64,000 nucleotides of DNA from an uncultured delta proteobacterium. Lineage in GTDB: Bacteria; Myxococcota_A; UBA9160; SZUA-336. The number at the start of each line of letters is the position of its first letter. Positions within the stretch are counted from its first letter, which is position 1. This document shows, in pieces, positions 24,742 to 28,181 of the stretch. The notes under the pieces were generated by a model. The model made no database searches. It was not told where the DNA came from and saw only the letters and a program-made list of their open reading frames with translations. Where the stretch lies: the NCBI GenBank assembly GCA_963704165.1, contig CAVPHD010000009.1:288001-352000 (forward strand). The letters run 5' to 3'. A program made the position numbers and the translations under genes.

Positions 24742-25509
24742 CTAGCGGGTCGCGGCGGCAGGCTGCTCCGCGCGCGGGATCACGATCTCGCGCGGCGCCG
24801 AGGCGACCGGTACGAAGAGTGACGGCTTGAGCCGGCGCTTCAGCTCGTCGAGCTCGCGGCGCGCGGCGTCGTGCTTGGCCTCGTCGCGGATCGCGCGCAC
24901 GCGCCGCTCGAGTCCGGAATCGAGGTCGAGGTCGATCCTGCTCTCGGCCTTCAGCCGCTCGATCTCCCCGCGCACGCTCTCGAGCGCCTTCATCTCGCCG
25001 TCGGTCGAGAGGCCCTCGAAGGCGGACTGGATGCGGCGCCGTGCACGGGCGCTCGCGAGCGCGGCGAGCATGCGCACCTTCTCGCGCTCGAGGTTGCGGA
25101 TCTCGGCGCGGAACTTCACCAGATTGGCCTTCGCGCCCTCGCACTCGGTCGAGACCTCGTCGAGCTCGCGCTGGCCGCGTTCGAGATCCTGGAGCAGCGC
25201 GTCCTTCTGGGTGATCAGCACCAGCGCGACCTCGTCGTCGTTTCGCTTCACGGCGCGGCCGATGTCCTCGTGCAGACGCGAGAGCTCGGCGCGCCGCTCG
25301 CGCAGCTCGCCCTCGATCTTGTTTCGCATGTACAAGATGCCCGCGACCGCGCGCTTGAGCTCCGCGTACTGGCGCACGCGCTCGCCGATCACGCGCTCGT
25401 AGACCGCGTCGGGCCGCTCCGCTTCGCGCTCGCGCATCCAGACCGCGAAGACGCCGTTTACCAGGTCGCGAAAGCGCGAGACGATGCCCCGATGTCCGTG
25501 CATGCTCAT
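24742..25509 (-). CDS. pspA: PspA/IM30 family protein
   Basis: N-terminal amphipathic GIVSRFRDLV, P..VYE, long coiled coil, C-terminal ELDELKRRL. Confidence 0.8.
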   Translation of the reverse strand: MSMHGHRGIVSRFRDLVNGVFAVWMREREAERPDAVYERVIGERVRQYAELKRAVAGILYMRNKIEGELRERRAELSRLHEDIGRAVKRNDDEVALVLITQKDALLQDLERGQRELDEVSTECEGAKANLVKFRAEIRNLEREKVRMLAALASARARRRIQSAFEGLSTDGEMKALESVRGEIERLKAESRIDLDLDSGLERRVRAIRDEAKHDAARRELDELKRRLKPSLFVPVASAPREIVIPRAEQPAAATR

Positions 25510-25519
25510 CTGCGTCCTC

Positions 25520-26919
25520 CTATTCGGACTCGTCGCTCCAATCCTCGGAGCGCAGGTCCAGCTCGCGGATCTTCTGCTGCAGGCTCTGGCGGACCATTCC
25601 GATCGCCTCGGCCGTGCGCGACACGTTTCCGCCGTGTTCCCGGAGCGCGCGCACCAGGTAGGCGCGCTCGAAGCTCTCGACCGTGATCCGCTTCGCGTCG
25701 CGGAAGGGCACGCCGATCGAGAGGTTCGTCTCGACGTCGGCCGGCACCTCCGCGCCTTCGAGCGCGAGGTCGGCGACCGTGATCTCCGAAGCGCTCGCGA
25801 GCACGGCCGCGCGCTCGATCACGTTGCGCAGCTCGCGCACGTTGCCGGGCCACGCGCTTCGGGTGAGCCGCGCGAGCGCGTCGTTCGAGAGGTGCTTCGG
25901 CTCGCGCCCGAGTCGCTCCGCGACCGCGTGGATGAAGCGCTCGGCGAGCAGGGGCACGTCCTCGAGCCGCTCGCGCAGCGGCGGAAGCGTCATCTCCACG
26001 ACCTTCAAGCGATAGTAGAGGTCCTCGCGGAAGCGGCCTTCTCGACCTCGCTCTCGAGGTCGCGGTTGGTGGCGGCGACGACCCGCACGTCGACGTTCAC
26101 CACGCGGTTTCCGCCGACCGGCTCGAAGCTCCTCTCCTGCAGCACGCGCAGCAGCTTGGCCTGCGTCGCGGGCGACATGTCGCCGATCTCGTCGAGGAAG
26201 ATCGTGCCGCCGTTCGCGGCCTCGAACTTGCCGACGCGCCGCGCGTCGGCGCCGGTGAACGCGCCCTTCTCGTGGCCGAAGAGCTCGCTCTCGAGGAGCT
26301 CGGGCGAGATCGCCGCGCAGTTGACCGCGACGAACGGCTTCGCGCGGCGGGCGCTGCGCTGGTGGAGCGCCTGGGCGACGAGCTCCTTGCCCGTGCCGCT
26401 CTCGCCGCGCACGAGCACGGAGAGGTCGGTCTCGGCGACCTTCTGGATCGTCTCGAAGATCTGCTTCATCGCGCGGCCCTGGCCGATCAGGTTCTCGAAG
26501 GACAGGTCGCGCTCGACGCGTTCGAGCAAGAGCCGGTGCTCGCGCACGAGCTGGGTGCGTTCGAGCGCGCGCCGCACCACGACGCGCAGCTCCTCGTTGT
26601 CGAAGGGCTTGGGCACGTAGTCCTCGGCGCCCTGCTTCATCGCCTCGACCGCGACCTTCTCGGAGCCGTGCGCGGTGATCATCACGACCGCCGTCTCCGC
26701 GCGCGCCTCCTTGCTCGCGCGCAGCACGTCCATGCCGCTGATCCCGCGGCCGAGCGCTAGATCGGTGATCACCAGGTCGTAGGGCTTCTCGCCGAGCATG
26801 CGCACCGCGTCCTCGCCGGTGTCCGCCAGGTCGACGTCGTAGCCGTCGCGCCGCAGCAGCCCGCGCAGCGCGAGCTGGATCGCCTTCTCGTCCTCGACGA
26901 CCAGCACGCGCGCGCTCAT
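25520..26919 (-). CDS. NtrC-family sigma-54-dependent response regulator (one frameshift near 26035)
   Basis: REC domain, [31 protein letters not shown], Fis-type HTH; halves join if one G is restored in AAG-G(G)C-CGC. Confidence 0.93.
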
Positions 26920-28055
26920 CTCGAGACCTCGGGGCTCTGGGCCTGCTTCGGGAAGTGCAGCGTGAACTCGCTGCCCTGCCCGGGCGCCGAGTGAAGCTCG
27001 ATCTCGCCACCGTGCGCGTCGACGAGCTTGCGCGTGATCGCGAGCCCGAGTCCCGTTCCGTTCGCCTTCGAGGTGAAGAACGGCTTGAAGATCCGCGCCT
27101 GCGTCTCGGCATCCATGCCCGGGCCGTTGTCGCGCACCCGCGTCCACACTTCGTTCCCGCCGAGGTTCTCGCCGATCGCGAGCTCGAGCACGGGGCTCGT
27201 CGTCCTCGCCTCGACGAACGCGTCGAGCGCGTTCCCGATCAGGTTGATGAAGACGCGGCGCAGCTGCTCGGCGTCGCCGACCATCTCGCCCGGCACGTCG
27301 AAGTCGCGCTGCACCTTCACACCCGCGTTCTCGCAGCGCTCGCGAAGCGACTCGAGCGCGCTCTCGGCGGCATCGACGAGCTTCATCTGCTGCGGGTGCA
27401 TCTCCTCTTCGCGCGCGTAGCGCAGAAGGTGCGAGATCGAGCGTTCGACGCGGTCGAGCTCGTGCAGCGCGATCTGCGCGTACTCGACGTTCTCGGCCGA
27501 GCCGGGGTCTTCGCCGAGCTGTTGCACGAGGCTCTTCGCGGCAGTGATCGGATTGCGGATCTCGTGTGCGATCGACGCGGAGAGCTCTTCGAGCGAGCGC
27601 AGCTTCTCGTCCTCGAGCGCGACGCGCTGGCGCGAGACGGATCGCGAGACCTGCCGTTCGACCTCGCTGCGCACCCACTTCCGGCGCAGATCCGGCGCGA
27701 CGATCGCCTGGAAGAAGTGCGAGGCGAGACCGATGCCCCAGGCCAGCGCGACGATCACCGCGGTACGGAAGTTGATGAACGCCAGGAACAAGACGACGAA
27801 CGAGTACGAGATCAGATGCTGGAAGAAGCGGATCTTGCGCTCGGCCGTGCGGCGCGCCTCGAGGTAGGTCTCTTCTTCGGGAGAGAGCTCGCGGCCGCGG
27901 CGCCGCGCGCGCCGGCGCTCGCGCTCGGCGTCCCGTTCGTCGCGTGCGGCGTCGCGAGCGGTGCGCGCATCGACACGGCCCGGACGACTCCAATCGGGAC
28001 GCCCGTGGCGGTCTCGCGTCCTTCCCTTGTCCCCGTCGTCCCAGCGCTTTGGCAT
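26916..28055 (-). CDS. Sensor histidine kinase with N-terminal 2TM domain
   Basis: HL..Y...WGIGL..H 2TM pattern; AHEIRNP H-box; N, G1 (DNGPG), F (FKPFF) and G2 (GTGLGL) boxes. Confidence 0.93.
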
Positions 28056-28165
28056 CCGCTTCACTCCACACGGGCCCACGGCCCCGAGCAGGACCCGAAT
28101 CGAGGGGATCCCTGGCCCGGGCGGACTTGGCTGGATTGTAGATCGCCGCATCGGTCCAGCCCGAG

Positions 28166-28181
28166 AGCAAGAGACGTGCCC
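28166..28181 (-). promoter_or_regulatory. Sigma-54 -24/-12 promoter of the HK-RR-pspA operon
   Basis: GGGCACGTCTCTTGCT versus consensus TGGCACG-N4-TTGCW: one mismatch, exact GG-N10-GC spacing. Confidence 0.75.

Follow-up and report, generated by a model that had tools for sequence, protein, structure and literature searches.

What switches on a pspA gene that is accompanied by the regulators of neither the enterobacterial phage shock protein (Psp) system nor the Lia system of Bacillus subtilis? This question is raised by a locus on a 64,000-nucleotide (nt) stretch of DNA from an uncultured delta proteobacterium (GTDB lineage Myxococcota_A; UBA9160; SZUA-336; assembly GCA_963704165.1, contig CAVPHD010000009.1, positions 288,001 to 352,000), here referred to as the window. 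On its minus strand, genes for a histidine kinase with a two-transmembrane (2TM) hairpin, an NtrC-family activator, and PspA follow one another behind a sigma-54-type promoter. From the letters of the window alone, an original prediction had proposed that they may constitute an envelope-stress circuit combining features of Psp and Lia. Our comparative analysis suggests, with a probability of roughly 0.72, that the three-gene operon is a self-activating two-component membrane-stress switch in which PspA acts as the repair effector and not as an inhibitor of the activator.

In the proposed circuit, membrane perturbation would activate the 2TM kinase, which would sense the bilayer itself because it has no outside domain. 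The kinase would then phosphorylate Asp53 of the activator, and the phosphorylated activator would bind tandem palindromes, thereby turning on transcription of its own operon from the sigma-54 promoter and of unlinked genes encoding Toastrack proteins, oxidases, ABC exporters, and a membrane protein of 80 to 90 amino acids (aa). PspA, like other PspA/Vipp1 proteins, would polymerise on the inner membrane as the repair effector.

Organization of the operon and its products

The first gene (26916..28055, minus strand; coordinates without a handle are those of the window) encodes a 379-aa histidine kinase that consists of a charged N-terminal tail, the 2TM hairpin (approximately 27827-27705), a coiled coil, a HisKA domain with His164, and a HATPase_c domain. 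The claim that the hairpin is the only input of this kinase was borne out, as Pfam recognized 2TM, HisKA, and HATPase_c and no further domain. In the predicted structure (predicted local distance difference test score of 82), a one-residue turn separates the hydrophobic helices and no extracytoplasmic domain is present; one helix enters the first hydrophobic segment, and a continuous helix links the second segment to the His helix. A Foldseek search with this model returned histidine kinases, none of them specific to the hairpin, an Atlas search with the 2TM region gave no usable match, and a search for stand-alone short 2TM relatives yielded one match out of 8 candidates.

The activator gene (25520..26919, minus strand), which is frameshifted in the assembly, starts at position 26919 and is coupled to the kinase gene by an ATGA overlap. 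Its product carries Response_reg (E value of 2.4e-28), Sigma54_activat, AAA lid, and HTH_8 domains, in agreement with the predicted order of a receiver (REC) domain, an AAA domain, and a Fis-type helix-turn-helix (HTH) motif, and its nearest solved structures are NtrC-family regulators. Asp53 of the receiver domain is invariant in 24/24 activators, the GAFTGA motif is kept, and the HTH helix is nearly invariant. Features of an NtrB/NtrC-type pair are present: the phosphoaccepting His of HisKA with its HATPase in the kinase, and the receiver Asp, Walker A and B motifs, GAFTGA, and Fis-type HTH in the activator. As is usual for such pairs, candidate palindromic sites for the activator also lie ahead of the -24/-12 motif.

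The pspA gene (24742..25509, minus strand) follows after a gap of 10 nt, with a GGAGG sequence overlapping the activator stop codon, exactly as had been described. The 255-aa product matches Pfam PF04012 (PspA_IM30; E value of 1.8e-15) and, by profile comparison, Vipp1/PspA structures (E value of 7e-18); its predicted structure comprises an N-terminal helix that is amphipathic (moment of about 0.5), a long hairpin, and a C-terminal helix. A scan of the organism's own genome (G000; 3.87 Mb in 12 contigs, 84% complete) revealed rpoN, one PspA, and one 2TM domain, so that PspA of the operon is the sole one found. The same 84% complete genome, to which the search was confined, gave no match to PspB, PspC, or LiaF-TM (PF22570), and the reported absence of pspB, pspC, and liaF from the locus thus extends to this assembly, within the limits of its completeness.

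Conservation of the kinase-activator-pspA arrangement

The kinase and activator genes lie directly upstream of pspA in 33 of 38 in-class loci and in none of 31 neighbourhoods from other Myxococcota classes; a lack of conservation, which would have refuted the original prediction, was thus not observed. One of the remaining five in-class loci lies at a contig end and four are rearranged: a 2TM pseudokinase that lacks the phosphoaccepting His precedes pspA in two of them (L050 and L101), a kinase gene alone precedes it in a third (L094), and a degenerate kinase gene does so in the fourth (L095), the genome of which holds a full kinase-activator copy elsewhere. An orthologous activator (70 to 77% identical) is found elsewhere in the genomes of L050, L101, and L094, behind another kinase. 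Where pspA has been split from the activator gene in this way, each unit retains the promoter and the palindrome described below.

Additional 2TM genes also occur. Eight in-class pspA loci contain two full kinases, and in some loci a His-less 2TM pseudokinase or a 119-aa hairpin-only protein is encoded directly before pspA, behind a sigma-54 promoter of its own (L043:1118-1999, L101:5738-6586, L050:3634-4335, and L046:3544-3903). A tree built from 33 kinases groups the main kinases in one clade (support of 95/99) that excludes the downstream kinases of the twin loci and the two pseudokinases, although the latter are on long branches and are placed with little certainty. No accessory second 2TM gene was found in G000.

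In a sample of 401 genomes from the phylum, 49 of the 78 class members have both the kinase family and the PspA clade, none has the kinase only, two have PspA only, and 27 have neither; in the two PspA-only genomes, PspA lies at a contig end and is a weak partial match, respectively. A metagenome scan recovered 17 family loci before only generic kinases appeared. Kinase, activator, and pspA are seen together in 7 of these 17, and the other 10 end short of the pspA position. The system is apparently confined to one class, which is known here from assembled genomes alone; related PspA genes are common outside it. In other classes, pspA adjoins genes for an AAA ATPase and TerB-like proteins (L064, L071, and L079, in which the ATPase was checked with Pfam, and L085, L086, and L089) or genes for a binding protein-OmpA fusion and an ABC permease (L066 [checked with Pfam] and L078).

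The kinase family was nevertheless detected in two Myxococcota from outside the class, where the gene order is AurF-like diiron gene, kinase, and activator (L241:4080-7332 in G401, and L240 in G302; the Pfam scan of these loci covered L241). Each set of genes is preceded by a sigma-54-type motif, the -12 element of which is a variant in L240, and by palindrome-like sites. Since these two AurF-linked pairs have no pspA nearby, the regulatory module is portable and can probably operate in the absence of PspA.

The search for a conserved gene behind pspA gave a membrane protein gene in a single family. In L055, L060, and L097, a gene for a hydrophobic protein of 147 to 160 aa overlaps the pspA stop codon; the L055 copy has no Pfam match. 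The PspA of L059 (4489-5184) ends, at a contig end, in unrelated sequence that we take to be FtsH-like and that probably reflects a mis-join.

A predicted sigma-54 promoter with a candidate enhancer

The motif GGGCACGTCTCTTGCT (28166..28181, minus strand), previously proposed as a sigma-54 promoter, has GG-N10-GC spacing and one mismatch to TGGCACG-N4-TTGCW and is the sole such match in the 64-kb window. Taken alone it is weak, as 0.21 matches are expected in the window and 18 of 100 shuffles reach its score. The motif precedes the first 2TM gene in all 34 loci that have upstream sequence. All 34 promoters also carry the palindrome TGCAG-N8-CTGCA, with 8 or more of its 10 bases matching, 70 to 108 bp upstream of the sigma-54 site, and 29 of the 34 have a second partial palindrome 14 to 23 bp from the first. 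In the window, candidate enhancer site 1 (CGCAG-N8-CTGCA; 28241..28258, minus strand), which falls a little beyond the span given in the original prediction, starts 78 bp upstream of the -24 GG, and a weaker candidate site 2, identified with the tandem model described below, lies 19 bp downstream of site 1 (28222..28239, minus strand).

The palindrome sets this promoter apart from others in the genome. Among 152 sigma-54-like sites in G000, the operon promoter ranks first by the single palindrome, with a score of 19.0 against 4.3 for the next site. Across 121 class genomes, a composite pattern of palindrome and sigma-54 motif matched 143 times, in 83 of the genomes, compared with 16 times for a reversed control; outside the class it remained near background (17 matches versus 10 for the control in 123 genomes). 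Of the PspA-positive class genomes, 50 of 53 contain the pattern, as do 2 of the 18 listed PspA-negative ones. The internal promoters ahead of a pseudokinase or hairpin-only gene have a palindrome of their own (L043 and L046). Collectively, the conservation of these elements supports an intramembrane kinase, an activator controlled by phosphorylation, and autoregulation of the operon, as originally proposed.

Strong sigma-54-like sites without the palindrome were seen in G000 at C11:84570 and C12:67014, before genes whose products have pilin-type N termini as judged by eye. A site resembling an IHF-binding site (at most two mismatches to the consensus) occurs in 12 of the 34 promoters and is absent from that of the window. 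No sigma-70-type site was found between positions 24400 and 30400, and the conserved TACAAT sequence past the promoter, considered as a sigma-70 -10 box, was rejected, as it lies in the first codons of the extension described next.

An in-frame ATG or GTG is found 12 to 16 nt past the -12 GC in 31 of the 34 promoters, near the point at which transcription from sigma-54 promoters begins; for comparison, any such near start is found at 10 of 35 strong sigma-54-like sites in G000. In the window, an ATG at 28151, 15 nt past the -12 GC, would open a predicted 32-codon in-frame extension of the kinase (28056..28151, minus strand), a region that also contains the GGAG ribosome-binding site of the downstream kinase ATG. 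Because the second in-frame start usually lies some 20 to 36 codons further on, two kinase isoforms are possible, the longer of which may be near-leaderless. A more elaborate scheme, which we regard as doubtful, adds two elements to the circuit: the second 2TM paralogue of the pspA unit, which occurs as a full kinase, as a pseudokinase without the His, or as the hairpin by itself, would pair with the main kinase as a modulator resembling LiaF or PspBC and would anchor PspA, closing the feedback within the membrane, and sigma-54 induction would also switch the kinase to its longer isoform, creating a second feedback loop.

A predicted regulon of membrane and Toastrack genes

Forty extra sites were considered among the 143 composite matches. 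The first genes behind them encode a family of small membrane proteins of 75 to 100 aa with a weak likeness to DUF5683 (11 sites), Toastrack-type proteins (10 sites; seven by Pfam and three by BLAST), metabolic enzymes (8 sites), HlyIII-family membrane proteins (2 sites), and MacAB/FtsX exporters (2 sites); at one site a further 2TM kinase is followed by a Metal_resist/LTXXQ protein. An Atlas search with the small membrane protein returned only DUF5683/TM2-like clusters.

We then ranked the 152 sigma-54-like sites of G000 with a tandem-palindrome model that was trained solely on the operon promoters of relatives. The operon promoter came first, the gene for a small membrane protein second (C1:666946), and a Toastrack gene of the DUF4097 type fifth (C1:206001); the top five, all of which have a site 78 to 80 bp upstream, also include a short Toastrack-like remnant of weak similarity (C11:7775) and a frameshifted gene for a DUF697 protein, the family to which YcjF belongs, with a weak SHOCT match (C6:123579). 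The sites ranked second and fifth are the only ones in this genome with homologues of the first extra genes found in relatives. Toastrack and SHOCT-like domains were defined as partners of Psp systems by Ravi et al. (PMC11237479), and psp operons can be extended by ycjF (PMC3041696). Since the palindrome marks unlinked Toastrack, small membrane protein, and oxidase genes, the tandem palindrome is predicted to define a Psp/Lia-type regulon of unlinked genes. The presence of the same enhancer at unlinked Toastrack and small membrane protein genes also lends independent support to the envelope-stress function that had been postulated from the operon itself.

Several observations weigh against the membrane-stress switch. 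The system is missing from 27 of the 78 class genomes, and the conservation counts overstate the case because related genomes are not independent. The 40 extra sites were picked by hand and chosen away from the known operon; six of them are single cases that may be due to chance, and eight precede enzyme genes (three for P450, three for FMN-dependent dehydrogenases, and two for Mpo1-like proteins). The enhancers of the extra members in G000 are degenerate, with tandem scores of 6 to 15 against 24 for the operon, and the activator gene is broken in this assembly. Both kinase helices are of moderate hydropathy (peak of 2.1), and the 2TM segment is therefore possibly a re-entrant hairpin. Finally, in L241 and L240 the AurF-like gene takes the place of pspA, and no pspA lies nearby.

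The enzymes leave room for a role in sensing lipids or solvents. The pair might respond to lipophilic compounds or lipid state and drive mainly oxidation and export, in which case pspA would be one of the protective genes within a regulon for metabolism or detoxification. The P450s, the FMN-dependent dehydrogenases, and the Mpo1-like proteins, which are 2-hydroxy-palmitate dioxygenases, would suit this explanation, as would the HlyIII-family proteins, the MacAB-type exporters, and the association of the module with an AurF-like diiron gene outside the class. However, pspA is the constant partner within the class, membrane and Toastrack genes (21 of 40) exceed the enzymes, and the top-ranked sites of the organism's own genome all precede membrane or Toastrack-type genes. 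We thus consider a primarily metabolic regulon improbable, albeit the most credible of the competing explanations.

PspA is unlikely to inhibit the activator

The original prediction had also allowed for negative feedback by PspA, which would act on the AAA domain of the activator in the way that it inhibits PspF. Co-transcription of pspA with a sigma-54 activator speaks for such a loop. In PspF, PspA docks on Y51, L52, and W56 (PMC3791423). We read the equivalent positions off the conserved H...R...PF frame of the activators: the first is Q, E, D, or N, the second mostly R, and the third mostly R or K. In 24/24 activators, these positions thus contain neither Y nor W and are mainly polar or basic. 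A second PspA site on PspF has been reported (PMC6003685), and loss of one patch therefore need not abolish binding. Nevertheless, the receiver domain of the activator is intact, pspA has parted from the activator gene in three genomes yet stays with a 2TM protein, and in two genomes the pair stands with AurF-like genes and not with pspA. Inhibition by PspA consequently appears quite improbable, and this part of the original prediction was not supported.

The activator frameshift is most likely an assembly error

The activator gene lacks one base within a short run of G at approximately 26037-26039, and the assembled frame stops after 304 codons; a search of public runs also found no reads of this strain, and a real lesion would mean that the circuit is dead here. 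Yet the two halves share one frame in all 27 distinct relatives compared at this position (two duplicates and a further locus, whose activator is unrelated, were omitted), the flanks of the break are 88 to 94% identical to the nearest relatives, and the promoter and enhancer are intact. Moreover, frame switches were detected in 7 of 75 genes tested in G000, the activator gene included. The best public run contained at most 12% of the locus words, and four read sets mapped at 85% likeness drew in unrelated activators and were uninformative. An assembly error is therefore the most likely cause, a dead circuit is very improbable, and decay of the locus, raised earlier as grounds for abandoning the hypothesis, found no support. 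The activator of L052 has a separate break near its C terminus. In G000, other sigma-54 activator genes and an acyl-CoA-synthetase-like gene with several frameshifts were noted (C1:427174-427674, C11:85189-85692, and C11:5300-7790); the several broken genes are in line with an unpolished assembly.

Least probable of all is that a different enhancer-binding protein reads the palindrome and that the operon is a downstream target without autoregulation: the genome has 24 Sigma54_activat matches, of which some are weak or fragmentary, and NtrC-type sites often contain TGCA, but the palindrome stays with the pair both after splits and outside the class, and hardly any of the listed class genomes without PspA have it (2/18).

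Neighbouring genes

Upstream of the operon, a gene for a Peptidase S15/PepX_C protein (28263-30203, minus strand) ends 5 bp before the enhancer, an order kept only in the closest relatives. Because no terminator was called after this gene, basal expression of the operon may come from read-through. Downstream, a tRNA-Leu(TAG) gene (24622-24703, minus strand) begins 39 bp past the pspA stop codon, and the same tRNA-like sequence is found in several close relatives. The region is flanked by genes for an S41/PDZ peptidase (30359-32758, plus strand) and a family B DNA polymerase (32724-35042, minus strand), and by what we take to be a phenylacetate-oxygenase-like cluster (21074-22994, plus strand).

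Relation to known PspA systems

The operon resembles Lia in its input and Psp in its output and fails defining features of both. With enterobacterial Psp (pspF divergent from pspABCDE, and pspG) it shares PspA under a predicted sigma-54 promoter, an AAA+ activator with GAFTGA, and upstream sites, and the IHF-like sites in 12 of the 34 promoters, although not in the window, add to this likeness. However, PspF has no receiver domain, whereas the activator described here has one, is served by a kinase of its own, shares a transcript with pspA, and has lost the residues of the YLW patch; the Psp sensors PspB and PspC have no counterpart in the genome as assembled. With LiaIH-GFSR of B. subtilis it shares the link between a PspA homologue and a two-component system, seen here in 33 of the 38 in-class loci, and with Lia/Vra a kinase without an extracytoplasmic sensor domain, here according to a predicted model. 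In contrast to Lia, the kinase is of the HisKA type, has a Pfam 2TM hairpin, and lacks a HAMP domain, the output is of the NtrC/sigma-54 type in place of a REC-HTH regulator that works independently of sigma-54, no LiaI/LiaF-TM match was found in the genome as assembled, and the Toastrack (DUF4097) genes, which encode LiaG-like proteins, are unlinked and predicted to be regulated through the same enhancer and promoter. The term hybrid, used in the original prediction, therefore fits the logic only, as neither the kinase nor the regulator belongs to the LiaS/LiaR type and the activator differs from PspF.

Other two-component contexts of pspA are known. The Streptomyces SCO2168 context (PspA-PspAA-HISKIN-REC+wHTH) and actinobacterial PspC-kinase systems described by Ravi et al. 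likewise place pspA or its partners in a two-component operon but, as represented there, use REC+wHTH regulators and a different sensor domain instead of a sigma-54 activator; no PspAA was recognized here, although no search was aimed at it. Desulfovibrio vulgaris has a deltaproteobacterial sigma-54 phage shock operon (DVU2989 and DVU2988-2986), in which DVU2989 is reported as a single-component PspF-like activator without an N-terminal domain (PMC4641369), unlike the REC-bearing activator of this locus. The representative contexts in Tables S3 and S4 of Ravi et al. (PMC11237479) pair PspA with PspF-type activators or REC+wHTH regulators and contain no REC-AAA activator. Our literature search, whose scope did not include part 3 of that supplement, the accompanying web application, or subscription papers, found no description of this operon.

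The operon is a real, conserved variant of the PspA envelope-stress systems, and its candidate enhancer and predicted regulon are new here. It represents another wiring of PspA/ESCRT-III-like membrane repair, with a sigma-54 output as in Psp and a kinase input as in Lia but with the regulators of neither, and the Pfam 2TM hairpin gains a candidate function as a membrane sensor. The hairpin-only-input kinase, its activator, the enhancer motif, and the predicted regulon form a compact and testable kit that could show what a minimal intramembrane kinase senses.

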